Program-made: the position numbers and the translations under genes
Assembly: GCA_964364285.1 (NCBI GenBank)
Contig: CAYIKZ010000002.1
Location: 3,800 to 67,799 of the forward strand
Direction of reading: 5' to 3'
Origin: an uncultured Candidatus Saccharibacteria bacterium
GTDB lineage: Bacteria; Patescibacteriota; Doudnabacteria; UBA920; VMFF01
Length of the DNA stretch: 64,000 nt
Part shown: in pieces, positions 6,255-63,400 of the stretch
Layout of the letters: every line of letters starts with the position of its first letter
How positions within the stretch are numbered: position 1 is the stretch's first letter
The notes under the pieces: generated by a model
Seen by the model: the letters and a program-made list of their open reading frames with translations, nothing else
What the model was told of the DNA's origin: nothing
Databases searched by the model: none

Positions 6255-6752
6255 ATGCCAAACAGCAATGGGGCTGAGACTCTGGTTCGAGTGACTGAGA
6301 AGTATAATAGTCTTCTCGAAACTCTCGATCGGGAGATCAACAGCGCCCGACAGCTGGATGGTTTCAGGCTCTACTCGATGTACACCGGGCAGATGGAGTT
6401 CGTTGTCAGAGAGGTGGGAGTGCTTCGGTCATACCACACTGACGACGATAAGATTGTCCGTTATTGGTGGGCGATCAAGCAGCTTACCACGCTTTTGCAC
6501 AAGCTGGAGGCTGCTCAGCTCAAATTCTTGAAGGACCGGGCGCATATTTTGCCGCAGAAGTTTTTCCGTTTCCGGCGTCGCGTTCTGCAAGACTCTGGAC
6601 ACTCGCATCTGATACAGCTGACAAAGGAGTGCGCACACTGGGTGCACATCTTCGCCCGTGCTGCGAACAGCCCCAATGCAACAGTGTATAGGCTCCGACC
6701 GCAGCTGGTTGGAATCCTGACACGGATGCAAGATATACAAACCAGACTTTAG
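6255..6752 (+). CDS. Hypothetical protein encoded in GC-rich island 1
   Basis: 166 aa from an ATG preceded by GGAGG. GC-rich codon usage unlike its neighbours. No recognised domain. Confidence 0.5.
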   Translation: MPNSNGAETLVRVTEKYNSLLETLDREINSARQLDGFRLYSMYTGQMEFVVREVGVLRSYHTDDDKIVRYWWAIKQLTTLLHKLEAAQLKFLKDRAHILPQKFFRFRRRVLQDSGHSHLIQLTKECAHWVHIFARAANSPNATVYRLRPQLVGILTRMQDIQTRL

Positions 6753-6819
6753 AATAGGAGGAAATAACAGGAAGAGTTTTTCAGTTCACGTTGCGCGTAG
6801 TCCTCACACAGGAGAACCG

Positions 6820-7011
6820 ATGGCACGTATGAGAGCGTACTGGGATTCCGGATTTGACAACGCCGCTCGCCACAAGAAGAGCAAGGGAGAAGCCCGTCGT
6901 CGTCGGGAAGATCCCGACGCACAGGCGAAGCAAGTGGCGGCGCAGATCGCCACGCTTGCTCGCAAGAACGCGGTTGGATCCCGTTCCTCGCTGCTGCACA
7001 TCAAGCAGTGA
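6820..7011 (+). CDS. Small basic protein encoded in GC-rich island 1 (hypothetical)
   Basis: 63 aa, Arg/Lys-rich, AGGAG 5 nt upstream of the ATG. Confidence 0.35.
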   Translation: MARMRAYWDSGFDNAARHKKSKGEARRRREDPDAQAKQVAAQIATLARKNAVGSRSSLLHIKQ

Positions 7012-26057: not shown

Positions 26058-26987
26058 ATGACGCATCGCGAAGTGCACTTCCGCGTGTCTGATGAAGACA
26101 TGCGGAAGATCGATGGGGTCTGGTCGAGTCTGAGAGACAAGGCTCAAAGGGGCCGTCTCCCAATCGACAAGATCATCCGGGAGCTCCAGCGTGCCAATGA
26201 AGGTCACTTCACGGCACCGCCGCTGACATACAGCGACGAGGAGTGTTCGGATGAAGAGAAGGGGATGTACAACGGAAACCACAAGCCTGCAAGCATCTGG
26301 GAGCAGGCGCAGTTCTGGAGTCGTATTCTCCCAGATGCGGACTTCTCGTATCTTGAGAAGTTCGCCGGAGGAGACCCTGATCTGTACCAGCTCGCCGAGC
26401 AGTGGGGTGTGGTTCCGAAGCCTCAGCTGCTTCGCGCTCCCGACTACTGGGGTGCCTACCAGCACCTCGTGCACACGTACTTCAGTTTGGACGGGGACTT
26501 CCCACACATCATGATGCAGTGGAGCGGTTTCATCAACGACCACAGCGACAGGCCACGTCTGACCAGGAAGACTGCTGCGTGGCATGAACGCATCACCGAG
26601 CAGACACCGGGAGACTTCCTGGTTTTCCCGTTCCAGTTCGGTGCTTTGCACGCCGGCAGATCTAGGCGCCGTGCCCAGGTTTGCTATGAGCACAACGAGA
26701 TTGGCCTCGGTCCTTACGAGGCATTGTGCTTGCTTGCAACGCATCCGAACCGGCTCGCGCAGGGCGCTCTCGGGTTCTACTGCATCGGTGCGAAGTGTGG
26801 CTGGCACAAGCGGGATCAGCAGGTTCCGAGTTCGGCGATGTATCCTAGCTGGTTCTGTCCGCGTTTCGGGTATTCCGACGTTGATCAGATAGCATTCGTT
26901 GACTGCGGCTTGCCGACGTACCAATCGAACCGCTACATTGGTTCGATCACGGCGTTCGAGTTGCCGATCGAGGAAGTCGCTGACTGA
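26058..26987 (+). CDS. Hypothetical protein encoded in GC-rich island 2 (no recognised domain)
   Basis: 309 aa from an ATG preceded by AAGGAGGA. GC-rich. The ORF-track start at 25899 lies in AT-rich leader and is rejected. Confidence 0.55.
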   Translation: MTHREVHFRVSDEDMRKIDGVWSSLRDKAQRGRLPIDKIIRELQRANEGHFTAPPLTYSDEECSDEEKGMYNGNHKPASIWEQAQFWSRILPDADFSYLEKFAGGDPDLYQLAEQWGVVPKPQLLRAPDYWGAYQHLVHTYFSLDGDFPHIMMQWSGFINDHSDRPRLTRKTAAWHERITEQTPGDFLVFPFQFGALHAGRSRRRAQVCYEHNEIGLGPYEALCLLATHPNRLAQGALGFYCIGAKCGWHKRDQQVPSSAMYPSWFCPRFGYSDVDQIAFVDCGLPTYQSNRYIGSITAFELPIEEVAD

Positions 26988-36845: not shown

Positions 36846-36915
36846 TATATGTCGCGGTACATGCCGTGATACAAGTAGGTTCACAGTCTGACACGGAGGA
36901 CTCTTGGACAAACTG

Positions 36916-37620
36916 ATGTTGCTTAACCGTATGGTGTTGGCTCTTGACGATATGGAACCGGATCAGATCGGTGAGCTGATCGCTGCACTTGCTCACAATG
37001 ATCTTCTTCCATGGTCGTTCAAGGTCAACGATCGTTGGGTCGAGAGTGGAAAGCAGACGGTACCGATGTTGCGTCTTGCGGCCGGCGGTGCTCACGTCAG
37101 GGTGCTCGCAGACCTGAAGCTCAGCGACACCCCCAAGACCATGAGCGCAAGCGCGAGGCGGGTGCGCGAGGCGGGTGCAGTTGCACTCACAATCCATGCC
37201 AGCTGCGGCCTTGATTCCATCAAGGCTGCGCTTGAGCACGGTCCAGCGGAGATCATTGCTGTGACCTTGCTCACCTCGATCAATCGGATGAACTGCCTGG
37301 CGCTCTACGGGCGTGAGCCGATTGAGCAGGTCAAGATCTTTGCCAAATACGCGCTCGAGAGCGGGGTTGGCAATCTGGTCTGCTCCGGGGAAGAAGTCGC
37401 GACGCTTCACGAGATGTACCCTGGCATCGGTCTGCTGGTTCCCGGTGTTCGTATGCCGGGTAGCGACCTTCGGGGTCAGAAGCGCATCACTACGCCATGG
37501 GATGCTTTCAACAACGGTGCAACGCGCATCGTTGTCGGAAGCGAAGTCACGATGGCGAAGGACCCAGTGGCTACGTTCGAGAATCTGCTCGCGGAAACTG
37601 AGAAGCACGTGGAGTTCTGA
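36916..37620 (+). CDS. pyrF: Orotidine-5'-phosphate decarboxylase-family protein (PyrF-like), GC-rich
   Basis: LALDD near the N-terminus, K-L-S-D-T-P-K-T (OMPDC KxxDIPNT-like) and C-terminal RIVVGSEV. ATG 36916 is used; a TTG at 36904 is possible. Confidence 0.65.
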   Translation: MLLNRMVLALDDMEPDQIGELIAALAHNDLLPWSFKVNDRWVESGKQTVPMLRLAAGGAHVRVLADLKLSDTPKTMSASARRVREAGAVALTIHASCGLDSIKAALEHGPAEIIAVTLLTSINRMNCLALYGREPIEQVKIFAKYALESGVGNLVCSGEEVATLHEMYPGIGLLVPGVRMPGSDLRGQKRITTPWDAFNNGATRIVVGSEVTMAKDPVATFENLLAETEKHVEF

Positions 37621-37640
37621 CACCAACCGGAGGAGGAAGG

Positions 37641-38336
37641 ATGATAGTAACTGGGGGAAGGTGGCAGAACGAAGCTGTGACAAGCTTCCTAGACTCCCTC
37701 TGGGCCTTTGGCGCCATCATGGGCGTCGACAAGTCGCCAGAGGGCAAGGGGTTTCGGCTTGCGCTTCACGAGCGTAACCCAGATGCCCCACTCTCGCCGT
37801 TCTACTTCAACCTGCGGCGGGTCCAGTCGCACCCGGCGACCCTGTACATGGCAGCACAGATGATGAGGGAGAAGATCATCGAGGATATTGATGGTGGTGC
37901 TTTCCAACTCATCGCCGGCATTCCAACTGCCGGTACACCGTTTTCGACAGCCTTGTCCCTGCTGATGCATCGCGGACAGGTGTCGCCGCGGATGCAGGCG
38001 AAGGGGCACGGGGTTGGTGATCTCGTGGATGGTGACTTCCATGACGGGCAGACCGTTCTGTTGGTCGACGATCTGATCACCGAGGCTGATTCCAAGCTTC
38101 GTGCGATCGACATCCTGCAGCGCGCCGGTCTCATCGTTCAGAATATCGCCGTCCTGATCGACCGGGAACAGGGCGGCAGACAGCGGCTTGAGGCTGCTGG
38201 GTACAAGGTTCACCCCGTCTTCACGGTCACTGAAGTCTTCTCCTACTACCTGGCTGCTGGTGAATCCACCCAGTCCGCCTACGACCAGATCGTGGAGTAC
38301 CTCGACCGCGAAGCCGAGAAGCACGCGAACCAGTAA
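37641..38336 (+). CDS. pyrE: Orotate phosphoribosyltransferase (PyrE-like), GC-rich
   Basis: PRPP-binding motif VLLVDDLITEADS and DREQGG. N-terminal PyrE-like flexible loop. Strong RBS GGAGGAGGAAGG. Confidence 0.75.
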   Translation: MIVTGGRWQNEAVTSFLDSLWAFGAIMGVDKSPEGKGFRLALHERNPDAPLSPFYFNLRRVQSHPATLYMAAQMMREKIIEDIDGGAFQLIAGIPTAGTPFSTALSLLMHRGQVSPRMQAKGHGVGDLVDGDFHDGQTVLLVDDLITEADSKLRAIDILQRAGLIVQNIAVLIDREQGGRQRLEAAGYKVHPVFTVTEVFSYYLAAGESTQSAYDQIVEYLDREAEKHANQ

Positions 38337-50506: not shown

Positions 50507-50857
50507 ATGCAAGATGATAAATGGAACATGTTAATAGAACATGCAAAAAAGTCCTTTAGAGATGTTGATTTAAGGACAGAGGATTTAACCGCAGAAACAG
50601 CTGACGGTCTAGTAAAACAGGGGACCCAGGAGATTCTAGAGTTTACAAACGATAAAGGAAGGTTCAGGTTAATACGAGAAACAAAGCCTGTGGTCCTAGA
50701 AAAAAAGATGTATTATTCCCACAGACAAGGGGATAGCGCTAGAACAGAATATGTTTTTTCAGATACAGAAAAAACACACAGAATGCGCTTCTTCAAAGAA
50801 GACGGTTTTGATGAATGGAGAGAGTTAGAAGCAGACAACATTACAGATATATTTTAA
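50507..50857 (+). CDS. Hypothetical protein
   Basis: 116-aa ORF, translationally coupled to the next gene. Confidence 0.4.
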   Translation: MQDDKWNMLIEHAKKSFRDVDLRTEDLTAETADGLVKQGTQEILEFTNDKGRFRLIRETKPVVLEKKMYYSHRQGDSARTEYVFSDTEKTHRMRFFKEDGFDEWRELEADNITDIF

Positions 50858-50859
50858 AG

Positions 50860-51711
50860 ATGCTAGCTGAACAAATATTAAAAACCATAAAATATTTCGA
50901 TGTTCAAAACCACCCTTTGACGCTTTTAGAGATACATAAATATTTGCTTGCAGACAAAGGAATAAAAGCAACAATTTCAGAAATACTAACAATCCTAGAA
51001 ACAGATCTTAAAGACAAAATTCAAACTTCAAATGGTTTCTATTATTTAACAGGCCGTAGTGAAATTTCAGAACAAAGATTAAAAAACAACATCTTTGCAA
51101 CCAAACGGTTAAAAAGAACAAAAAAATATCTTTCAAAAATTAAATACATACCATTCATAAAAGGTCTTGCTGTTGGTGGTTCTGAAGCAATCACCAACTC
51201 AAGAGAGACAAGCGACATTGATATCTTTGTTTTAACTAAACCAAATAGGATTTGGTTGGCAAGACTTTTCCTAAGCGCATACTTTCAAATATTTGGAGTC
51301 AGAAGACATGGCAAAAAAACAGCCAACCGTTTTTGTTTAAACCACTACATTGAACAAGGGAAACTACTTAACAGAGAACAGCATATATATTCAGCAGTAG
51401 AATATATATCTTTAATTCCATACTTTGGAGGAGAAGAAATCTATGAGTTTCAAACGGCAAATCTAACTTGGATTAGAGAATACTTAGCTCAACCACAGAT
51501 TGTCAGATACACAACACCAAAAGCAGCGAAGATAACAGAGATATTTGAAAAGATGCTACAGAATAAACTCGGAGACTTTTTAGAAGAAATATCAGGTAAA
51601 TTTCAGACAAAAAAAATACACCTTCAGGATAGTATAGTGTTAGAAAAAGACGAGCTTGTTTTCCACCCAGGAAATAAGGGGAGACAAGTCATGAGTAAAT
51701 TTAACCCTTAA
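50860..51711 (+). CDS. Nucleotidyltransferase-fold protein (pol-beta superfamily, putative)
   Basis: GGSEAITNSRETSDIDIF matches GS...DxD. ATG 50860 immediately follows the upstream stop. Confidence 0.5.
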   Translation: MLAEQILKTIKYFDVQNHPLTLLEIHKYLLADKGIKATISEILTILETDLKDKIQTSNGFYYLTGRSEISEQRLKNNIFATKRLKRTKKYLSKIKYIPFIKGLAVGGSEAITNSRETSDIDIFVLTKPNRIWLARLFLSAYFQIFGVRRHGKKTANRFCLNHYIEQGKLLNREQHIYSAVEYISLIPYFGGEEIYEFQTANLTWIREYLAQPQIVRYTTPKAAKITEIFEKMLQNKLGDFLEEISGKFQTKKIHLQDSIVLEKDELVFHPGNKGRQVMSKFNP

Positions 51712-51720
51712 ACGAACCGA

Positions 51721-51757
51721 GGCCCCGCAGACAAAAATAGTCTGGGGGCCTCACGAG
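51721..51757. terminator. Long GC hairpin
   Basis: gaggccccgcagac-aaaaata-gtctgggggcctc. Confidence 0.45.
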
Positions 51758-51760
51758 GGT

Positions 51761-51931
51761 TCACGGCTTCGTCGTGTCGATGACAGCCGCGGGCGGCGTC
51801 TGGGCGGCCGCTCTCGGCTTCGGGGTCTGGTTGACGAAGAAGTAGCCGGCTACAAGCGCGCAGACGATGATGACGAACGCGATCGTCCATGTGCTTGGTC
51901 CGGTGTCCACCGTGGCACGCTTGCCGAACAT
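51761..51931 (-). CDS. Small single-TM protein encoded in GC-rich island 4 (hypothetical)
   Basis: 56 aa from an ATG after GGAGGG, with one hydrophobic helix and a Pro/Ala-rich tail. GC-rich. Confidence 0.3.
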   Translation of the reverse strand: MFGKRATVDTGPSTWTIAFVIIVCALVAGYFFVNQTPKPRAAAQTPPAAVIDTTKP

Positions 51932-52036
51932 AGTCCCTCCTGCGATCCCTCGCAGGTTGAAGTGGTGCTGCGTGATACTGCGTGGGGTTTCATTGCATAT
52001 TGCCACATCTGTTTTAAAAAATCAAGCGCAACAAAA

Positions 52037-52066
52037 CACCCTAAAGAATGCTCTTTAGGGTGTTTA
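52037..52066. terminator. Terminator after the NERD gene
   Basis: aacaccctaaag-aatgct-ctttagggtgtt. Confidence 0.55.
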
Positions 52067-52078
52067 AATTAGATGTAT

Positions 52079-52732
52079 TTAAACTTTCTTTATGACCTCT
52101 GCGATATATCCTGGTTCTGTAATGGAATGCGTATAGCTATTCAGTATTAAACTTACTAATTCATCCTTATGTACAAAAGAAACATCATCAGAAACATGAT
52201 TAACACCACCATCGCGCATATTCGGCATAACAAGGATCGCATTAACCCAAATTTTTTTTCTGCAGTACGCATCAATGAAATGCTTTAACTTCATTGCACC
52301 ACGATGTGATTGATTTAAAAAAGCATGCATTTGTCCCTGGTTTGGGTGATAGTGGCTTTTGACTTCAATCGCAAAAATTCCAGTTGGACCAATAACAGCA
52401 AAATCAATATCACCGCCGTGTCTTAAAGAGAGGTCTTGGAAAACATAAAAGTCATGTGGTAGGCGAAGAAGTTCTTTTTTGATGCTTTCTTCACCCCAGA
52501 TTCCTCTTGAAAATCTATGAGATCTTTTTTCAAAAAGTTTAGCCAAGCTGTAACCGAGAGGGATTAATAGAACAATCAAAAGCATCCAATCAGAAAGAGA
52601 AGAGTAGGTATCAACATCACGCTGGGTTAAATAACTCAAAAACAAGAACAGTCCTAAGGTTATGACAAACAGAAGAATAAAAAGAGACTCTTTTCTTTGC
52701 AGGAAACTGCTTTTTTTAATGTATATAGCCAT
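52079..52732 (-). CDS. NERD (nuclease-related domain) protein, membrane-anchored
   Basis: N-terminal TM helices plus a NERD-like core ...DFYVFQDLSLRHGGDIDFAVIGPTGIFAIEVKS.... Confidence 0.65.
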   Translation of the reverse strand: MAIYIKKSSFLQRKESLFILLFVITLGLFLFLSYLTQRDVDTYSSLSDWMLLIVLLIPLGYSLAKLFEKRSHRFSRGIWGEESIKKELLRLPHDFYVFQDLSLRHGGDIDFAVIGPTGIFAIEVKSHYHPNQGQMHAFLNQSHRGAMKLKHFIDAYCRKKIWVNAILVMPNMRDGGVNHVSDDVSFVHKDELVSLILNSYTHSITEPGYIAEVIKKV

Positions 52733-52772
52733 TACTGTTTTATTCTAGCACTTTTGGATCCTCTGTGGAGGG

Positions 52773-52801
52773 TTGACATGGTAAGTCCTTGGTGTTAATA
52801 T
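52773..52801 (+). promoter_or_regulatory. Promoter TTGACA-17-TAATAT (extended -10) upstream of GC-rich island 5
   Basis: -35 at 52773-52778, -10 at 52796-52801. Confidence 0.45.
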
Positions 52802-52947
52802 GCTTTTTCTACAGTATTCTCCTGCAGCCGCTCGCGTGAGCGAAGCGGAAGCAACACAAGCCCAGAGGGCGAGTGGCTGTAGGAAACCCTTTCGTTCTGG
52901 CACAAGGGTCCAGATACGAAGGACAACTCGTTCGGAGGAACCATCTG

Positions 52948-53163
52948 ATGACCACCACGAGCACCGGCCGACTGCGGACCCGCAAGCCCCAGGCGAGCAT
53001 TTTTCCCACCATCATGGACATCCTGGACGCGGTGAAGCACGACGACGGCAGCGGGCAGCAGGGCATCGACAAGGCGCCGGCCACGCAGTCCGACGGCAGC
53101 GGGCAGCAGGGCATCGACAAGGCGCCGGCCACGCAGTCCGACGGCAGCGGCACCGCGCAGTAG
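52948..53163 (+). CDS. Small tandem-repeat protein encoded in GC-rich island 5 (hypothetical)
   Basis: 71 aa from an ATG after GGAGGA. Contains two copies of DGSGQQGIDKAPATQS. Confidence 0.4.
   Translation: MTTTSTGRLRTRKPQASIFPTIMDILDAVKHDDGSGQQGIDKAPATQSDGSGQQGIDKAPATQSDGSGTAQ
53044..53151 (+). repeat. 48-bp direct tandem repeat, 2.25 copies
   Basis: gacggcagcgggcagcagggcatcgacaaggcgccggccacgcagtcc repeated exactly. Confidence 0.9.
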
Positions 53164-53193
53164 CAAGGCGGCGCCGGGTCACCAGGGAAGCTC

Positions 53194-53237
53194 GCCCCGA
53201 GGCGCTCGGGGCGGGCAACCCCAGGTTTTCCTGGGGA
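53194..53237 (+). terminator. Two consecutive GC hairpins (terminator)
   Basis: gccccgag-gcg-ctcggggc, then ccccagg-tttt-cctgggg. Confidence 0.5.
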
Positions 53238-53557
53238 GCAAGCGAAGAAGCAGCAACCGCATTGGTTGACTGCTTTTTTCGTCCCTTTCTTAGGTCCTTG
53301 ACAAACTAGCAATATTTAGTTAATATTCCCAGTTAAAACAAAATATTAGTTATGGCTCCTGATTTCGTGCATACGGATTGGGGGCAACCCAAAAGGCTTG
53401 TGTAAGAGCATTTATTTATGAGGCTCTATGGCACGAGTCTTTTTGTTTTGTATATTTAATACTTTGTTAATGAATTTTTAATGTTTTTTGCGTATTAATA
53501 GTAGGAAGGTTAAAAAGGAATATTAGTTTAGATCTAGTCTGTGTTTTCAGGAGCGCG

Positions 53558-53586
53558 TTGACATATGGGGTCTTTTGTTTTAAAAT
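53558..53586 (+). promoter_or_regulatory. Promoter TTGACA-17-TAAAAT for rpmF
   Basis: Lies 35 nt upstream of the rpmF ATG. Confidence 0.5.
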
Positions 53587-53620
53587 GAAACCTGTATATT
53601 AACTTGATAATCACAAAACT

Positions 53621-53797
53621 ATGGGTGTTCCAAAAAAGCACAAGACCAGATCAGGAAGAGACCAAAGAAGATCTCACCACGCTTTAAAAGCAAAGGTATA
53701 CGTAGCTTGCAAAAACTGTGGCGCTCCAACAAGAACGCATGAGATTTGTCAGAGCTGTGGTTTTTACAAGGGACGTCAGGTCCGTAAAGTTAAATAA
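53621..53797 (+). CDS. rpmF: Ribosomal protein L32 (zinc-ribbon type)
   Basis: 58 aa, MGVPKKHKTRSGRDQRRSH...CKNCG...CQSCG. Missed by the ORF track because it is under 60 aa. Confidence 0.8.
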   Translation: MGVPKKHKTRSGRDQRRSHHALKAKVYVACKNCGAPTRTHEICQSCGFYKGRQVRKVK

Positions 53798-55390: not shown

Positions 55391-56083
55391 TTGAAATTAG
55401 GAGGATGCGTGAAATCATATTTAAAACAAAAGGCAATACAACTGCGCAAAGAAGGTTGGTCATACAGCGTTATCCAAAAAAGAACAGGGATATCTAAGAG
55501 CACCCTTAGTAATTGGCTTGGTAATTTATCGTACAGACCAAACTTAGAAGTTAGAAAGAGCATAAAAGAAGGACCGTTGCGTTCTGCTATTATGCGCAGA
55601 AAAGCTAAGATCAGGAGTATAAGAGAGATTAAAATAGCGGCAGCAAGAGAATTGGGTAAGCTTTCCAAAAGAGATAAGTGGATGTTAGGTTTGGCTATTT
55701 ATATGGGTGAAGGTTCAAAGACTCATGATAATATTAGGGTTGTAAACTCAAACCCAGAAATAATTAAAAGTGCTGTTAAATGGTTTAGTAATAATTGTGA
55801 TGTGCCATTAGCTAATCTCGCTATTAGGGTCCATTCATATCCTGATATAGACCAAGACAAGACTAAAGTATATTGGTCAGGAGTTACTGGTATACCCTTA
55901 AGCCAGTTTTTTAAAAATCATATAGATACCAGGACAAACAAATCAGTTTTGAAAAAACGTAAATTGCAATATGGAACAGCTCATTTAATAATCAAGAGTT
56001 GTGGAAAAATAAAATTTGGGGTAATCTTACATAGAAGAATTATGGGCTGGATACAAGAAGCCTATAAGCAAATGCGGGTATAG
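55391..56083 (+). CDS. HTH-domain protein with a single LAGLIDADG-like motif (putative homing endonuclease-like protein)
   Basis: N-terminal resolvase-type HTH (GWSYSVIQKRTGISKSTLSNWL) and a central WMLGLAIYMGEGSK motif. Start uncertain (TTG 55391 or GTG 55409). The stop lies inside tRNA-Gly. Confidence 0.45.
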   Translation: MKLGGCVKSYLKQKAIQLRKEGWSYSVIQKRTGISKSTLSNWLGNLSYRPNLEVRKSIKEGPLRSAIMRRKAKIRSIREIKIAAARELGKLSKRDKWMLGLAIYMGEGSKTHDNIRVVNSNPEIIKSAVKWFSNNCDVPLANLAIRVHSYPDIDQDKTKVYWSGVTGIPLSQFFKNHIDTRTNKSVLKKRKLQYGTAHLIIKSCGKIKFGVILHRRIMGWIQEAYKQMRV

Positions 56084-56147
56084 TTTAGTGGTCAAACGCC
56101 TCCCTTCCAAGGAGAAGTTGCGGGTTCGATTCCCGCTACCCGCTCCA
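56074..56147 (+). tRNA. tRNA-Gly (anticodon UCC)
   Basis: Manual fold: acceptor GCGGGTA/TACCCGC, D stem GTTT/AAAC, anticodon loop CTTCCAA, T arm GCGGG-TTCGATT-CCCGC, CCA. Confidence 0.8.
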
Positions 56148-56264
56148 AATATCGGTTAATTTAGATTGCGGAACATCCGCATTTTTTATCCACAAGAATT
56201 TTGGTTATCCTCATTGACTACATAAAAATATTTTTGTTAAACTCCTCATACGGGAGGAAATATT

Positions 56265-56723
56265 ATGCCAGAAGTAACAGAAAAAATAAGGGCAATATTT
56301 AGAGAAGAAGGCGCTCTTTTAATTGAGCCTTTAAGTAAGGCTATTCAAAGAACGCAGGACGATGTCTTGTTAATCAAGAATGACGTCTCAGGTTTGAAGA
56401 ATGACGTCTCAGGTTTGAAGGGTGACGTTTCGGATCTCAAGAGTGATATGTCAGGTGTTAAAGAAGACATCTCGGATCTCAAGAGTGATATGTCAGGTGT
56501 TAAAGAAGACATCTCGGATCTCAAGAGTGATATGTCGGATGTCAAAGATGATATTACTGGGATTCGAGAAGTTGTTGATAGTCACACGGTTACACTTGAT
56601 GGAATGGCTGGTTCTTTGGAAATCATGAGAACAGAGTTATCGGTAAGCAAATATAGACTGGATCGCCATGAGGGATGGATAACTAAATTAGCTCAAAAAA
56701 CCAAGCTCAAGCTTAGTCATTAA
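56265..56723 (+). CDS. Tandem-repeat protein (DxSxLKxDxS 7/14-aa repeats), hypothetical
   Basis: 152 aa, SD-like GGGAGG upstream. Central region is encoded by 21/42-bp DNA tandem repeats. Confidence 0.5.
   Translation: MPEVTEKIRAIFREEGALLIEPLSKAIQRTQDDVLLIKNDVSGLKNDVSGLKGDVSDLKSDMSGVKEDISDLKSDMSGVKEDISDLKSDMSDVKDDITGIREVVDSHTVTLDGMAGSLEIMRTELSVSKYRLDRHEGWITKLAQKTKLKLSH
56376..56560 (+). repeat. Coding tandem repeat array (21-bp and 42-bp units)
   Basis: aagaatgacgtctcaggtttg x2, then aagagtgatatgtcaggtgttaaagaagacatctcggatctc x2, plus degenerate copies. Confidence 0.85.
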
Positions 56724-57072
56724 CAGGGGGTAATGTTATCAAAGCATTGGCAGAGTTTTTTAGGAAGTGTAATATTTATTTACAAACGCCACGCCCAGCC
56801 CGCAAGGGTCCGGTGTGGTTTTTGATTCAGTTGGGTAGCTATGCGTTTCAAACTGGAATTTGATCTCATTTAGGGTTTATATTAGCTACGGCAACAGTAA
56901 ATTAATGGCTCCTAAATCCAATATGGGCTGGTACCTAAATAATTCGAAATTTAAAGTGAATTTTAACAAGTATCCTATTTATTCAACCAGTGGATATGTA
57001 GGCTTGTGATATTTAGGATTATATGTTAATATGTTTCTAAAGAGTGTTATTAATAGCCTTTTTTAGAAACGT

Positions 57073-57693
57073 ATGCAATATAATGAATTTAAGGAACAAT
57101 TAAAAGACTTTATTGTTTTTTCGATAACGGATATCCGCAAGATAGAACCGAAGTTTTACCGCCGTCGTTTAAATGAGTGGCAAGACAAGGGTTACATCAA
57201 GAAGATACGCCGTGGTTACTATATGTTTGCAGACACGCAGTTGAGTGAGGAAAAGCTTTTTTTGATTGCTAATAAAATTTATTCTCCATCTTATGTTTCT
57301 TTTGAAATGGCTTTGTCTTATTATGGTCTGATCCCCGAAGGTGTTTATTCGATTACTTCTGCTTCCAGCAAGAAGACAGAAAAGTTTAAGACAACTGTTG
57401 GTGAATTTACTTATCGAAGTCTTAAGCCACAACTGCTGTTTGGTTTTAGCTTACTAACGCAAGGAAAACAGACATACAAGTTAGCGGAGATGGAAAAGGC
57501 AGTCTTAGATTATTTATACATCAATTCCAAGAGCACGAGAAAGGAAGATTTGCAGGAGTGGCGATTTGAGGGGCGAGAATTTCTGGCAAAGGCTGACTTA
57601 AATAAGTTTAATAGATATGTTAAAGCTTTTAATAGTCCCAGTCTGGAAAAGCGAGTCAAGCAGTTTATAAATTTTATTAAGCAACAACAATAA
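57073..57693 (+). CDS. AbiEi-like antitoxin (type IV toxin-antitoxin / abortive-infection transcriptional regulator)
   Basis: 206 aa with an N-terminal wHTH and AbiEi_4-like layout. 1-nt overlap with the downstream nucleotidyltransferase gene. Confidence 0.65.
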   Translation: MQYNEFKEQLKDFIVFSITDIRKIEPKFYRRRLNEWQDKGYIKKIRRGYYMFADTQLSEEKLFLIANKIYSPSYVSFEMALSYYGLIPEGVYSITSASSKKTEKFKTTVGEFTYRSLKPQLLFGFSLLTQGKQTYKLAEMEKAVLDYLYINSKSTRKEDLQEWRFEGREFLAKADLNKFNRYVKAFNSPSLEKRVKQFINFIKQQQ

Positions 57694-58469
57694 TGTTAAC
57701 CTTAGAACAAATTGAACAGCAATATCCTGAAAATTTGCGAGCTTTTAAGCGTTCACTGCTTCGAGAGTATTTGCAGTATAAGATATTAGAAATTATTTTT
57801 GCTTCTGAGTATGCCTCTAAGCTGTCATTTTTGGGTGGCACAGCTTTAAGAATCCTTTATAATAATAATCGTTTTTCTGAAGATATTGATTTTGACAATT
57901 TTGGTTTAGAAGAGAGCGAGTTTAATGCCTTAGCAGAAAAGGTAAAATCTGGTTTAGAAGCTGAGGGACTGAAAGTAGAAATTGATATTGTTGGTAAAGA
58001 GGCTTATCGTTGCAATGTTCGTTTTCCAGATATTCTTTTTGGCAGCGAGCTGTCTCAACATCAAAGCGAAAAAATTCTTATTCAAATTGACAGTCTAGCG
58101 CACGGTTTTTCTTACCAACCCGAACGCAAGATTTTGAACAAGTTTGATGTTTTTACCGAAATTTTTGTTGCCACTTCTGATTTGTTACTGTCGCAAAAAA
58201 TAAATGCTGCTGTAAACCGCAAACGGGCCAAAGGTAGGGATTTTTATGATATTGTATTTTTGCTATCTTTTACCAAGCCCAACTATCAATACCTACACCA
58301 AAAAATGAACATTAGGGAACCAGAAGAGTTAAGAGCAAAGCTACTTAAACTGTCTGAGGAACTTGATTTTACAGAGTTAGCACGAGATGTAGAGCCTTTT
58401 CTTTTTAATCCTAGTGATAGTAAAAAGGTAGAGTTATTCCGAGATTTTATTCAGCAAGCAAAATTATAG
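57693..58469 (+). CDS. AbiEii/AbiGii-family nucleotidyltransferase toxin (DUF1814)
   Basis: GGTALRILYNNNRFSEDIDFD NTase motif. 258 aa. Confidence 0.75.
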   Translation: MLTLEQIEQQYPENLRAFKRSLLREYLQYKILEIIFASEYASKLSFLGGTALRILYNNNRFSEDIDFDNFGLEESEFNALAEKVKSGLEAEGLKVEIDIVGKEAYRCNVRFPDILFGSELSQHQSEKILIQIDSLAHGFSYQPERKILNKFDVFTEIFVATSDLLLSQKINAAVNRKRAKGRDFYDIVFLLSFTKPNYQYLHQKMNIREPEELRAKLLKLSEELDFTELARDVEPFLFNPSDSKKVELFRDFIQQAKL

Positions 58470-58536
58470 GGAGTAAGCTTTAAATTAACAAAGTTTTTGT
58501 TGCACTTCAGATTAGAATTTATGTAGTGGTCGCGTG

Positions 58537-58566
58537 TTGACCTAGTCTGTATAAGTAGGGTATAAT
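58537..58566 (+). promoter_or_regulatory. Promoter TTGACC-18-TATAAT (copy 1 of a duplicated 31-bp promoter block)
   Basis: gttgacctagtctgtataagtagggtataat. 29/31 identical to the block at 59209-59240. Confidence 0.55.
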
Positions 58567-58588
58567 ACGAACAACTAAAAAAGTATAT

Positions 58589-58906
58589 ATGACAAAATTA
58601 CATAAAATTTTTAGAGTTATATATCCCGCTAAACACCCAGAGGAACTTATTAAAGAATATAATATTCCTCGTACTTTGCATTTACAAATACGTCTTACTA
58701 AAGACGGCTGGTTTGTTGCGTCTGTTCCAGAACTTCCAGGTTTAATTACTCAAGCACAAACTCAACATGAATTACTAGATATGGTTAATGACGCGGTTTT
58801 AACTTATTTTGATGTACCAAAAAGACAAGCTGATATAATTTACGATCAATTGAATATTCAAGGAGTCCCAGCAGTCCAATATGAGGCTCAATTACGAACT
58901 ACTTAA
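58589..58906 (+). CDS. hicB: HicB-family antitoxin
   Basis: 105 aa, YPAKHPEE...WFVASVPELPGLITQAQTQHELLDMVNDAV HicB/UPF0150-like. Confidence 0.65.
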   Translation: MTKLHKIFRVIYPAKHPEELIKEYNIPRTLHLQIRLTKDGWFVASVPELPGLITQAQTQHELLDMVNDAVLTYFDVPKRQADIIYDQLNIQGVPAVQYEAQLRTT

Positions 58907-58912
58907 ATTTCA

Positions 58913-59170
58913 ATGGGAGAGTATAATTTCAATAAAAGACAATGCTTACAAGCATTAAAAAAATTAGGTTTTTTTGAGGGAAGCAAGCGCAGAGGTATTC
59001 ATGATAAATATTATCCTCCCAAAAGAATAGCCGAAAATCTGACTTCTGAGAAAGCCCCTTTTATAATGATACCTAGGCATAACGAGTTGCATATCCAAAC
59101 GGAAATTATCAAAGAGATTAAGGCTATGGGTGGTGATGATTTGGTAGAACAATTTAAAAAATATTTATAA
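58913..59170 (+). CDS. hicA: HicA-family mRNA interferase toxin
   Basis: 85 aa. ALKKLGFFEGSKRRGIHDKYY...IPRHNELHIQTEIIKEIK matches the HicA/YcfA pattern. Confidence 0.7.
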   Translation: MGEYNFNKRQCLQALKKLGFFEGSKRRGIHDKYYPPKRIAENLTSEKAPFIMIPRHNELHIQTEIIKEIKAMGGDDLVEQFKKYL

Positions 59171-59173
59171 TAG

Positions 59174-59200
59174 AACCGCTATAAATCAAATAAGCGGTTT
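59174..59200 (+). terminator. Terminator after hicA
   Basis: aaccgct-ataaatcaaata-agcggtt followed by TTATAGTTTT. Confidence 0.5.
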
Positions 59201-59210
59201 TATAGTTTTG

Positions 59211-59240
59211 TTGATCTAGTCTGTATAAGCAGGGTATAAT
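59211..59240 (+). promoter_or_regulatory. Promoter TTGATC-18-TATAAT (copy 2 of the duplicated promoter block)
   Basis: gttgatctagtctgtataagcagggtataat. Confidence 0.55.
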
Positions 59241-59268
59241 TTAAACAAGTATTAAGCTAATTTTAGCT

Positions 59269-59616
59269 ATGTCCAGATTTATTCAAAGAATACAATCTTA
59301 TTTGGCTACTCCGGCACAAGCCCAAGAAAAGATCACTCATTTATTGATTGAGCTTCGTCATCGTGGGTTGACTTTTGATATTAGCTTAGAAAATGAAGAT
59401 GGACAAAAATTCTTTTATGCAAAATCCATAGATTATCCAAAGGGTTATATTTCTGCTACTGGTCAAACTACGGAAGAATTAGAAAGTGAATTAAAGGACG
59501 CGATTTTTACAGCCTTTGAAGTTCCAGCAAGATTTTGCATTTCTGAACTAATTGTTTTCAATCCTCCTGTCTCACAGGTAGCTACTGCAAACCAGAAAGT
59601 ATATGCTACCATCTAG
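59269..59616 (+). CDS. hicB: Second HicB-family antitoxin paralogue
   Basis: 115 aa. YPKGYISATGQTTEELESELKDAIFTAFEVP, a HicB-like N-terminal domain. Confidence 0.6.
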   Translation: MSRFIQRIQSYLATPAQAQEKITHLLIELRHRGLTFDISLENEDGQKFFYAKSIDYPKGYISATGQTTEELESELKDAIFTAFEVPARFCISELIVFNPPVSQVATANQKVYATI

Positions 59617-59775
59617 TTTCCCGTCTGATATATCGCAAAAGAGACTAGCAAAAGCATTTCAAAAAGGGTTTACGCTGGTGGCAAAGGCGGTCATTATAAA
59701 CTTGATGATCCTAAAAGCAAGAAGTTTATAACTCTACAATCTAAACTCTGGAAAGCTGTACTAAAGATAAATTGA
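59603..59775 (+). pseudogene. hicA: Frameshifted hicA-like toxin remnant
   Basis: Frame 1 encodes ...LAKAFQKGFTLVAK. After a shift near 59670, the next frame encodes GGKGGHYKLDDPKSKKFITLQSKLWKAVLKIN* (a HicA-like C-terminus). Confidence 0.5.
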
Positions 59776-60461
59776 AGCAAGCGGAAGAACTCGGTTATGA
59801 CGCAACAGAGATAATGAATAATTATTAAATTCTCCGGCCTCTAAAATAAGAAGCAGGAGCTTTTTAATAGAAAAGGACTACATTCAACATTCTAGTGCAA
59901 CACCTCATTAGTCTACCTTACGGTGTTGCGCTTACTTGTTGAACTTACTATACGGTTGGTTGACAATAATACCAAAAGATTATATAATGCTTGCATATTA
60001 AACCTTTGTACCAGGTTTATCCACATTTATGATTTGTACCATCATAAGTATTTCCAAAGGCATTCTGCTGAATACCTTAGGAGCCAAAGAAATCAGGAAA
60101 GTAGAACCAACCACGCTTAAATAGGGGATTTTAAGCGACTTTGTTATACTTTCCTGGTTTTTTTATGCAGATTGTGTTTGCACGCACATGTACGTATAAA
60201 AGGAACCGGGCGGTTATTTGAAGACATATATAGAGGGTGTAACAACGCTCTATTATAGGCGTCAAATAATACGCAACTAGCACTGGAGTGTTTAGTGTTC
60301 TTTATTAATAAAGATTGGTCGATCTCTAGGCGAAAGGCCTTGTAATAGGCTTTGCCAGAAGCTAGTTGAAACAGAAAATATATTAATAACACTTTTTTTA
60401 GATTAAGATTGATTGTCGCATATGAACAATTAATCCCTCGTCTAAAAAAACGGAGTAAAAC

Positions 60462-63400
60462 ATGCAAACCTCTTTAGCAAAGAAAATCTTTGCAATAGGT
60501 TCAACTTCAGCCATGTTGTTAGCTGCTGTCCCTTTTGTGGCTTCAGCTGCAGTTCACTCTGCCGGAACAAACGTCGTTTCTAACGGAACCGTTTATTTCG
60601 TCAACAGCAATGGTCAGAAACAACCTTACACTTCAGCTGGCGCATTTTTGTCCTATGGTTTTAACACCTGGGCAGATGTAGTCCCAGCTTCCGCTGAAGA
60701 TATGGCTTTGCCTACTGGCTCATTCGTTCCTCCATCAGATGGTTCCCTTATCAATGATAAAGGCACTGTATATTTGATGGTTAACGGAATGCCATCAGGC
60801 TTTACTACAGAACCAAACTTCTTAGGCTCAGGCTATTCTTACAAGAATGTCTTGGCTGGTGATGTTTCCTTCTTAGCAAAAGGCTCAAATATCAGCACAA
60901 CAGCAATGTCCCACCCAGTTGGTACATTAGTAAACGACAAAGGTACTGTTTACTTAATGACAGCATCTGGAAAAATGGGCATTCCTTCTCTTTCAACATT
61001 TAATTCTTGGGGCTATAGCTTCGCAAAAGTCGTTCCTGCAAACAGCTACGACTCAGCAGTTTCTATGAGCTCTGGAATTATGAATGCAAGAGTTGTCGGA
61101 CAATTGAACCCAACAGGTTCAACAGTCAACATTCCTCCAGTATCTGGAACTCTATCTGTAAGCGCAGCTTCAGATATGCCAGTTACTAGAACATTGGTCA
61201 AAGGCGAAGCAGTCTCTGATTTAGCTCACTTCACTTTCTACGGTACTGGTACAGTTACCGCAGTTACTTTGAAGAGATTCGGCGTTTCAGCAGATGCTAC
61301 TTTGAACAATGTCTACCTCTTTGACGGTTCAACAAGACTTACAGATTCAGCATCAGTCTCATCTGGAAGCACAATCAACTTCACAAGCAACAGCGGCTTG
61401 TTTACAGTCAATGGTTCAAAAACCGTTGCTGTAAGAGCTGACATCCTTTCAACTGCAGCAGCAGGTGAAACAGTCGGCGTTCAGTTGACATCAGCAATGA
61501 GCGGTTCTAACACAGTTAGTGGCGCTCCTGTATCAGGTAACTTACACACTGTTGCAACAGCTACTTTAGCTACTGTAGCATTGGGTGCAGTTACTCAATC
61601 TGGTGCAACAAATCCAGGCGTAGACATCAATGTCTGGCAATCAACAGCAACTGTCTCAACAAGAGACGTATTGATGACAAGATTAGCATTGCGCCAAGTT
61701 GGCTCAATTGTTTCTGCTGACGTCAATAACTTCAAGTTGTTTGTAGATGGAGTACAAGTAAGCTCAGCAGCTTCTTTGGACTCTAATGGTTATGTAACCT
61801 TTAGCTTTAGCAAAGCATTGACAACAGGCAACAGAACCTTAAAGGTAACAGCAGATGTTATCGGTGGTTCTGGAAGAAATGTAGAGTTCTCTCTACGTGG
61901 TGCTTATGACATCTCAGTTACTGATACTCAGTACAATGCAGGTGTTACAGCAACCGCTTCTTCATTCCCATTGGATGCAGGTGCAACCTTCAACATTAGC
62001 GCTGGTTCTATGACAGTTGTTAAAGCAACTGATTCACAGTCTCAGAACGTTACTTTGGGTGCAACTGATCAAACATTGGCTAAATACACCTTCACCGCTT
62101 ATGGTGAACAAATCAAGGTTGAAACCTTGAGAGTCGGTGTTATAACAACTGGTGGAACTGTTACTGAACATACATTGAGAAATGTAAGAATCTTAGTAAA
62201 TGGTTTACAAGTTGGTAGCACAACCAACGTCCCAGCTGCAGCAACTTTTGCATCAGGCGCTGGTACACAATTCACAACAAACTTCACAGTAGTTCCTGGT
62301 ACAGTAGCTACAGTTGAAATTCGTGGTGATATCGTAGACTCTGAAGATACTGATAACATCGCAGCTGGAACAGTTACTGCTGTCCAAGCTTTGTTAATCG
62401 GTGGTACTTCAGCAAACAACGCAATTCCACAGGTATCCTTAGGAACCTTGGACGTGCCAACAGCTAACAACACATTAGGTAATAGCTTAACAATTGCCTC
62501 TGGTTCTATTAGTTTGACTCAACAGTCAACCTACGCAGGTCAGACAATTGTTGCTCCTCAAACAGCTTACAAAGTCGGTGCTTACAACCTAACTGGTAAT
62601 AGCACTGAAGCAGTCAACCTCAATACACTTGAAGTAGACTTCACTGGTACTACTGCTGAAGAAACTGTCTTAACAGACGTTTACGTAAAGTATGGTACTC
62701 AGACAACAGCTGTTAAAGGAACTGTAACCGCAGCAGACAACACATGGTCCATAAGCAGAACATTGGCAATCAACGAAACAATGCCAGTTGAAGTTTATGC
62801 AACCGTATCTTCTGCATTATCTACAGATACAATTATTACTCGTTTGACTGTCACTGGTATTACAGCATCATCTGGTTTAACCACTTATGCTGATACAAAC
62901 TCTGACACAACTAAGGATGCAAACGGCTTCTTAGGTCAAACAATCACTGGTGCTGCAAACGGAACTTTGACAGCAACAGCTGATGCTTCAACTCCTGATT
63001 CAGCAATTGTTGATGACTCAGGTACAGTAACTACAGCAGCCTTCAAGTTTGCTGCAGTCAATGATTCATTTACAATCACTGACATGACAGTCACTCTTGC
63101 AGATGCTTCTGCAGTTAACACTGTTACTTTGATGGACAGTGGCGTAGCAGTAACTGGTGGTTCAAAGCCAGGCGCTGCAACTCTAACCTTCAGTGGTTTG
63201 AATATCGCAGTCCAATCAAATAGCACAAAGATAATCACAGTTCAATTGACAATGTCTCCTGTTGGAGTAGGCGCTGGCACAGCTGGCTCTTCCTTGTTAA
63301 CAACATTGACATCATTCACCTCTCGTACCTCAAACGGCACATCTGACGTTTCAGCAAACGATGCAGGTCCTTCAATTGAAAACGACCCAGCTGGTAACAT

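Follow-up and report, generated by a model that had tools for sequence, protein, structure and literature searches.

Only one membrane-anchored NERD protein has been studied experimentally, SmdA from S. aureus, which is a single-gene cell-division factor with one transmembrane (TM) helix and 302 residues and which is without several of the conserved NERD residues (PMC9040797). NERD effectors are also part of the experimentally confirmed defence system HEC-02, in which the NERD gene shares an operon with that of an ABC ATPase, within defence islands (bioRxiv 10.1101/2024.01.29.577857). Here we describe a locus in which a membrane-anchored NERD gene stands between two short GC-rich islands, each carrying a small gene of its own. 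The locus lies in a 64,000-nucleotide stretch of DNA (hereafter the window, whose coordinates are used throughout) from an uncultured Candidatus Saccharibacteria bacterium, assigned to the Doudnabacteria in GTDB (assembly GCA_964364285.1, contig CAYIKZ010000002.1, positions 3,800 to 67,799 of the forward strand). In our reading, to which we give a probability of about 55%, these are three independent single-gene transcription units, the outer two being orphan micro-protein genes whose high GC content is maintained.

The NERD protein of this locus resembles SmdA in its N-terminal membrane anchor and cytoplasmic NERD domain, in being a single-gene unit set apart from its neighbours, and in its chromosomal position among housekeeping genes, conserved in one lineage. 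Unlike SmdA, it has two TM helices and 217 residues, and it keeps E81, D110 and (E)xK125; a role in cell division could be proposed for it by pure analogy. With HEC-02 it shares the NERD nuclease domain and the (D/E)xK signature, but here there is no ATPase, no significant match to the PADLOC models, and the gene is apparently transcribed alone. The small gene of one island (island 4) encodes a single-TM peptide of less than 60 amino acids (aa) and is a stand-alone unit with a hairpin by its Shine-Dalgarno sequence, as in Hok, TisB, Fst and AapA, from which it differs in its long conserved Pro/Thr-rich tail, and a consensus scan detected no antisense RNA or promoter. Morons and other acquired islets are similar to both islands in their compact units with promoter (here putative), gene and terminator of their own, in their sharp borders and in their orphan products; however, the islands occupy a core chromosomal site and not a prophage, co-diverge with the host in every lineage and show no amelioration. 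Finally, like the dual-function small RNAs SgrS/SgrT, RNAIII/Hld and SR1/SR1P, they combine a short structured transcript and conserved helices with a small, weakly constrained open reading frame (ORF), but this ORF takes up about half of the transcript and has a strong codon periodicity, and no Rfam family matches.

Layout of the locus

The window is AT-rich (38.8% GC) and contains several housekeeping genes (relA/spoT, ndk, hisS, comEC, uvrA, rpmF, nusB, HU and tRNAs). A 100-nt GC scan identified five long GC-rich islands in it, the last two of which, island 4 (51692-52014, 58.5% GC) and island 5 (52800-53307, 63% GC), have sharp compositional borders and enclose the NERD gene. In each island the GC-rich stretch extends from approximately the putative transcription start to the terminator, the promoters being AT-rich and of host type. 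The features of the locus are:

51719-51752, minus strand: island 4 terminator hairpin (GAGGCCCCCAGAC-loop-GUCUGCGGGGCCUC), -32 kcal/mol, z=-6.3
51761-51931, minus strand: island 4 ORF, 56 aa, single-pass membrane micro-protein (MFGKR, TM segment, QTPPAAVIDTTKP)
51932-51995, minus strand: island 4 5' untranslated region (UTR), with Shine-Dalgarno GGAGGG (51940-51935) and a 7-bp hairpin
51997-52025, minus strand: putative island 4 promoter, TTGATT (52025-52020), 17 nt, CAATAT (52002-51997), read from sequence
52034-52065, minus strand: NERD terminator, a perfect 14-bp inverted repeat (100% complementary) followed by a T-run
52079-52732, minus strand: NERD gene, 217 aa, a NERD / PD-(D/E)xK nuclease-like domain preceded by two N-terminal TM helices
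52742-52769, minus strand: NERD promoter-like site, TCCACA-16-TAGAAT with TG, from the consensus scan
52773-52801, plus strand: putative island 5 promoter, TTGACA-17-TAATAT with TG, AT-rich host type, 10/12 matches in the consensus scan
52808-52947, plus strand: island 5 5'UTR, about 140 nt, stem-loops at about 52820-52884 and 52890-52922, fold z=-3.3
52948-53163, plus strand: island 5 ORF, 71 aa, hydrophilic (MTTTST, TRKPQ, variable part, PATQSDGSGTAQ)
53043-53150, plus strand: exact 48-bp tandem duplication, in frame and polymorphic, found with TRF
53164-53282, plus strand: island 5 3'UTR, about 120 nt, stem-loops 53190-53216 and 53219-53236, terminator 53242-53282, then a U-run

The original prediction, made from the letters of this DNA and a list of its ORFs, had described a GC-rich 56-aa single-TM protein, a GC-rich 71-aa protein with an exact 48-bp tandem repeat, a membrane-anchored NERD gene of host composition between them, and GC inserts that both end in strong GC hairpins; all of these were found at its coordinates, the hairpins with z=-6.3 in island 4 and z=-4.8 in island 5, and a Pfam search placed the NERD domain well above threshold.

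Both small ORFs show strong codon periodicity, with the GC content at the third codon position (GC3) far above those at the first and second (GC1, GC2): GC1/GC2/GC3 are 0.53/0.56/0.84 in island 4 (overall GC 0.64) and 0.60/0.54/0.96 in island 5 (overall GC 0.70). By exact-protein look-ups the window was traced to Hainich groundwater assemblies and to NCBI metagenome-assembled genomes (MAGs) labelled Patescibacteria group bacterium, and the next relative is labelled Candidatus Doudnabacteria. The comparison rests on related contigs (numbered L001-L028), in which the further lineages are L014, L015, L016/L020, L018, L019, L021 and L028. In those further lineages both ORFs are intact wherever the contig covers them, at least five related lineages having the two at matching positions, with Shine-Dalgarno sequence, start and stop kept, all length differences among lineages are in frame, and synonymous ACC/ACG and CCC/CCG changes occur inside the conserved motifs. 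The constraint at the protein level is weak, the ratio of non-synonymous to synonymous divergence (dN/dS) being 0.28-0.93 in island 4 and 0.67-1.28 in island 5, versus 0.01-0.14 for host genes.

The island 4 protein is hydrophobic over a single segment, at residues ~10-37, with a maximum of 2.48 on the Kyte-Doolittle scale. Its orthologues (54-58 aa, with the TM segment and the C-terminal motif TPPAAVVDTTKP) are intact in L014, L016, L019 and L021, and each of the four variants scanned has one Kyte-Doolittle segment, in which the residues differ but the TM property is kept. The putative promoter lies directly after the NERD terminator on the same strand and is kept in five lineages, with a score below the consensus-scan threshold. 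In the GC-rich leader (about 65 nt), a hairpin CCUGCGA/UCGCAGG (51939-51956) overlaps the Shine-Dalgarno sequence by 2 nt, and both are unchanged in the five lineages; the fold of the whole 5'UTR is no stronger than that of shuffled sequences (z=-1.3). The terminator stem shows compensatory changes in relatives (GAGGCC.. vs GGGGCC..), and this hairpin also sits just beyond the stop of a convergent 298-aa host gene.

The island 5 protein has no hydrophobic segment and is probably disordered. Its Shine-Dalgarno sequence (GGAGGA, 52934-52939) lies 8 nt 5' of the ATG. The orthologues, of 50-55 aa in seven lineages, keep the Shine-Dalgarno sequence, start and stop and have in-frame indels only; the N-terminal (MTTTST..TRKPQ) and C-terminal (PATQ.DG.GTAQ / PATQSDGSGTAQ) motifs are kept, and the middle varies in sequence and length. 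The putative promoter is also kept in relatives. The UTRs are more conserved than the ORFs. Both helices of the island 5 5'UTR show compensatory double changes across six lineages, and the 3'UTR folds with -66.7 kcal/mol (z=-4.8; 0 of 200 shuffles as stable). In the consensus fold of the six-lineage alignment, 97% of the cells in the island 5 UTR helices are paired, and 7 pairs are changed on both sides, versus 3.3±1.2 in shuffles and 0-3 in slid controls; pairing is complete (100%) in one 3'UTR helix (alignment A4, columns 364-391), two pairs of which differ on both sides. Stop-poor GC-rich frames also overlap island 5 (169 aa on the plus strand, 167 and 123 aa on the minus strand); we regard these long ORFs as artefacts, the 169-aa frame beginning in the -10 box and none being conserved in relatives. 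From these features of sequence and conservation, we conclude that both ORFs would be translated micro-protein genes, that of island 5 with less certainty.

Several public contigs have a 153/169-aa ORF annotated at 52800-53312 in place of the 55/71-aa gene; more generally, public annotations miss both small genes or put spurious 153- or 169-aa GC-rich ORFs there.

The NERD gene has the composition of the host (GC 0.36, GC3 0.31). Its product matches the Pfam family NERD (PF08378) over residues 76-169 with E=2.2e-11 and 44.7 bits (gathering cut-off 22.1), and its two N-terminal hydrophobic segments correspond to the helices 9-38 and 44-88 of an AlphaFold2 model (predicted local distance difference test score 75.6). 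Among nine NERD homologues, G77, E81, D110, K125 and Q141 are invariant, and E123 (IEVK) is a glutamate in eight and an aspartate in one. The top PDB matches that Foldseek found for the model are all PD-(D/E)xK nucleases (Can2, Card1, NucS/EndoMS, Bax1, the R2 endonuclease domain and McrC), and they are weak (E 2e-3 to 1e-2, template modelling score 0.28-0.35); a profile search of the PDB sequences gave no match, and NCBIfam gave none for the NERD protein, the two small proteins or the proteins of islands 1 and 2. Sequence and model thus suggest a membrane-tethered, cytoplasmic PD-(D/E)xK nuclease-like domain with intact catalytic residues and a predicted nuclease activity. In terms of annotation, this locus would be described as a membrane-anchored NERD gene with two new orphan micro-protein families, and not as a new defence system.

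Descent and composition of the micro-genes

The arrangement island 4-NERD-island 5 is present in more than 20 independently assembled contigs from various samples and projects, which rules out an assembly chimera, and the immediate neighbours (relA, ndk, rpmF, nusB and HU) are syntenic in all lineages. The pairwise distances of island 5 and of the NERD gene are correlated (r=0.93), and all lineages have their insertion sites and host-type promoters in common; therefore, the common ancestor already had the islands, which were inherited vertically. Outside this clade, the island 5 protein has no homologue among 5.8 billion clustered proteins or in a profile search of 1.84 billion representatives, and in the same protein searches the island 4 protein matches itself only (the matches returned numbered 4, 1 and 2, all in the clade). 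Since the protein alignment of island 5 is too little conserved for a locus search, a DNA pattern from its 3'UTR was used instead; its only matches are syntenic loci, which belong to a few related MAGs and metagenome contigs, and an IMG/VR scan of viral contigs with it was empty. Both micro-protein families are orphan, lineage-restricted and previously undescribed.

The composition of the islands does not decay towards that of the host. The synonymous divergence (dS) of host genes between lineages is 0.3-1.7, saturated or nearly so. As the parsimony polarisation of host-gene substitutions is unreliable at saturated sites, we relied on the comparison of fourfold degenerate sites: the proportion of these that differ is 0.27-0.48 in the islands versus 0.31-0.47 in host genes (conserved codon families), and their GC content (GC4) is 0.82-0.94 in every lineage for the islands versus 0.20-0.33 for host genes. 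At island fourfold sites, changes from G or C to A or T and in the opposite direction are balanced (11:11), and C<->G exchanges make up 16 of 38 island differences versus 22 of 487 in host genes; over the whole islands, polarised singletons number 61 towards A or T and 45 towards G or C. Turnover at the host rate without loss of GC therefore places the islands near a high-GC equilibrium, and not in decay. A single old transfer followed by neutral amelioration does not account for the unchanged GC4 under this turnover, and repeated import is contradicted by the co-divergence and by the absence of a homologue outside the clade in our searches. Left over are selection on transcript or DNA composition, or a strong local GC-biased conversion, which we take as a solid lead and not as proof.

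In the explanation that we favour, each small gene would be expressed from an AT-rich host-type promoter through a structured GC-rich 5'UTR and a strong Shine-Dalgarno sequence, and end in a stem-loop terminator. Both genes may have originated in a high-GC donor, would have belonged to the ancestor from which a small (Doudnabacteria-like) Patescibacteria clade descends, and would have been vertical since; a local force would now hold their GC high, presumably selection on the transcript for a stable, structured and long-lived mRNA. In island 5, the 48-bp duplication would have arisen very recently by slippage or unequal exchange between older 12-nt direct repeats, adding 16 residues to a probably disordered linker.

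A more far-reaching proposal is that GC-rich micro-genes form an actively maintained compositional class, inherited vertically and turned over at the host rate at approximately 90% GC, by transcript-level selection or an extreme local GC-biased conversion, and with ORF cores that are hot spots of exchange and length change. We regard this as possible, on a tentative footing. As a part of it, the mRNAs would be RNase-resistant, long-lived and structured, and such hot spots would be expected of products that act at an interface with phages or with the host cell of the symbiont. The same class may include the remaining three GC islands. A GC4 of approximately 82-94% in vertically inherited genes of a genome with 39% GC is hard to square with transfer followed by amelioration; if the pattern were genome-wide, it would offer a natural test of selection versus biased gene conversion in a reduced-genome symbiont, and compositional detectors of horizontal gene transfer (HGT) would mark old resident genes as recent arrivals.

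The proposed hot spots are seen in the 48-bp duplication and between L019 and L021: these two strains have identical NERD genes, UTRs and flanks, and their differences cluster in both island ORFs (at 901-1040 and 2119-2225 of L019, reverse). The island 4 ORF has 34 substitutions, with a proportion of synonymous differences (pS) of 0.35 and a ratio of non-synonymous to synonymous proportions (pN/pS) of 0.35, and island 5 has 8 substitutions (7 of them non-synonymous) and an indel, located in its trailer and in the ORF's 3' half. For island 4, this is the pattern of an old, selectively maintained allele in a near-identical background, that is, of short-tract allele exchange and not of hypermutation. 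A diversity-generating retroelement was considered and rejected: the substitutions are not adenine-specific (all base pairs are affected, besides the indels) and there is no second copy of the variable segment in 51600-53400, although the search did not extend to a reverse transcriptase gene across the window.

Several points weigh against the explanation that we favour. All six lineages with this NERD orthologue carry both islands, so that their co-occurrence would be compatible with a functional link, and among the relatives there was none with an empty site. The dN/dS of island 5, near 1, is also what a peptide without function or under weak constraint would show. The argument for a compositional equilibrium uses 33-44 fourfold sites per comparison. 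The high-GC donor is read from composition, no donor lineage having been found, and the promoters, transcription starts and translation are putative, taken from consensus motifs and conservation. Besides, the L019/L021 differences hint at diversifying selection or an exchange of alleles, neither of which would be predicted if the small genes simply coded for housekeeping micro-proteins.

Competing explanations

Rather than through peptides, the islands could act through their transcripts: the functional products would be structured, GC-rich regulatory or dual-function RNAs, with ORFs that are secondary or arose de novo from stop-poor sequence. The greater conservation of the UTRs, the covariation in four helices, the island 5 dN/dS, the open frames on both strands across island 5 and the orphan status of the proteins all agree with this, but an RNA would leave without explanation the three-base periodicity (GC3 of 0.84-0.96 against 0.53-0.60 for GC1 and GC2), the invariant GGAGG at the proper distance from a conserved ATG, the strictly in-frame indels, the synonymous changes within the conserved motifs and a TM segment kept at the level of its property; in addition, at the gathering thresholds Rfam finds five tRNAs in the whole window and nothing else, and a permissive scan of 51600-53700 gave chance-level matches only. 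We consider this explanation rather unlikely. That the islands came from a high-GC donor by recent or repeated horizontal transfer, and have yet to ameliorate, is the least probable of the alternatives, since every lineage has the same insertion sites and host-type promoters, the distances follow those of the host, the fourfold sites have turned over as host sites do with no net loss of GC, and neither protein nor DNA searches returned a donor homologue. This is in spite of the sharp borders, of codon usage, UTR composition and GGAGG Shine-Dalgarno sequences such as a genome with ~70% GC would have, of a competence gene in the window, and of the frequent HGT in aquifer Patescibacteria (PMC12455944).

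Two further alternatives concern a toxin-antitoxin or defence function. Island 4 could be a type I toxin-antitoxin-like gene, in which the translation of a membrane toxin would be restrained by the 5'UTR structure and an antisense RNA, as its size (54-58 aa), its single TM segment, the conserved hairpin at the Shine-Dalgarno sequence and its stand-alone unit with a strong terminator might suggest. However, a consensus scan, which is a weak test made on sequence only, finds no opposite-strand promoter-like site in or beside the island, the 5'UTR folds no better than shuffles, and the island is single-copy and stably vertical in all lineages. A long Pro/Thr/Ala-rich C-terminal tail with a conserved motif is also unusual for toxins of the Hok/TisB/Fst type; on balance we find this explanation improbable. 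The original prediction had gone further and taken the small membrane protein, the nuclease-domain protein and the repeat protein together as the composition of a defence or addiction locus, which would make of the three genes one module, in which the membrane peptide, the NERD protein as nuclease effector and the variable repeat protein would work together. Some observations are in line with it: the three genes co-occur in every lineage examined, the catalytic residues of the NERD nuclease are intact, NERD effectors do act in HEC-02, the genes around a distant homologue (P0012) include HicA, MazG-like, SLFN-helicase and DpnI, an AbiEi/AbiEii pair is 4.3 kb away, and NERD and both small ORFs evolve faster than the neighbouring housekeeping genes. 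Nevertheless, co-occurrence is uninformative here, because the whole neighbourhood is syntenic in the clade, and the genes form three promoter-terminator units (putative), with island 5 divergent from NERD. No ATPase or other sensor or partner gene adjoins NERD, whose neighbours are the two micro-genes, a nucleotidyltransferase (NTase)-like gene and rpmF; among the PADLOC models the 56-aa and 71-aa proteins have no match and NERD matches only PDC-S01 (E=0.0083). The housekeeping character of the direct neighbours and the distant NERD homologues (~30% identity), which are without GC-rich flanking micro-genes, also argue against a module. The outcome that the original prediction had named as refuting, an invariant repeat length and relatives whose NERD neighbourhoods lack any insert, did not occur: the repeat length varies and all close relatives keep both inserts; this is, however, only synteny in one small clade, and no functional link follows from it. 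With no positive evidence in its favour, a defence or addiction module is not supported by these data, and we hold it to be quite unlikely.

Repeat polymorphism and neighbouring features

The 48-bp repeat of island 5 (TRF period 48, 2.2 copies, 100% match, no indels, score 216) encodes DGSGQQGIDKAPATQS, present twice. Recent duplication or slipped-strand variability had been suggested for it, with a comparison of copy number between strains as the check, and the length does vary among near-identical strains: of the contigs from this one population, most have one copy (L001, L003, L007-L010, L012 and L027), and the window and L005/L011 have two. In L002 (the H52 0.1-um assembly), a scaffold gap of 100 N (5586-5685) lies exactly at the start of the repeat, where the assembler was unable to resolve the copy number. 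The H41 and H52 strain types are 2-6% different in the flanking blocks, and over 51780-53579 (1.8 kb) they are identical except for one single nucleotide polymorphism and the 48-bp indel; because this block is otherwise identical between one-copy and two-copy strains, the duplication must be very recent. The single-copy allele holds a 12-nt direct repeat (CGACGGCAGCGG), spaced 48 nt, an obvious candidate substrate, judging by its sequence, for slippage or an unequal exchange. The protein is intact in either allele (55 aa with one copy vs 71 aa with two). As 48 nt are 16 codons, a change in copy number alters the length of the protein and gives no on/off switching; a phase-variable switch was thus discarded, since copy number varies between close strains but neither the frame nor the promoter spacing is shifted.

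Beyond the locus, the comparison of H41 and H52 (window vs L027) gives a mosaic of identity: some blocks have 0-2 mismatches per 300 nt, those between them have 20-40, and the 2-kb stretch 61064-63163 has about 100. The mosaic suggests frequent recombination and, near the end of the window, a highly divergent locus.

The three further GC-rich islands (6255-7011, 26058-26987 and 36904-38336) have a similar layout, with a host-like promoter, GGAGG, at least one ORF and a hairpin. Their products are a 165-aa and a 63-aa ORF, a 309-aa ORF, and a pyrF+pyrE pair (GC3 0.68-0.72). The 165-aa, 63-aa and 309-aa ORFs have no match in Pfam, NCBIfam, PADLOC or phages; a tblastn search of phage genomes with the proteins of islands 1 and 2 found no match, and an IMG/VR scan with the island 2 protein was empty. 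A mobile-element origin was rejected, as the five islands have no common terminal motifs, inverted repeats, target duplications or sequence motif.

Convergent with island 4 is an overlapping gene pair (50507-51711), kept in all relatives. One of its genes encodes a 116-aa protein that belongs to no family, the other a 283/298-aa protein whose matches to nucleotidyltransferases are weak (Polbeta and NTP_transf_2, E~1e-3; PADLOC PDC-S09, E~5e-3); the pair might form a minimal NTase-type module. On the other side of the locus, the segment 53298-53450 has a strong promoter (TTGACA-17-TAATAT) followed by about 110 nt without an ORF, a terminator-like hairpin (53420-53441) and a T-run. This segment has no Rfam match and is almost invariant in all related lineages while the adjoining intergenic DNA varies, and it is a candidate small RNA 5' of rpmF. 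Finally, a segment of approximately 3.7 kb (56215-59959) beside tRNA-Gly (56074-56147), absent from L014 and L028, contains the strong AbiEi/AbiEii pair (57073-58469; PADLOC E=1e-63 and 7e-98) and is a strain-specific defence or toxin-antitoxin insertion at a tRNA gene.

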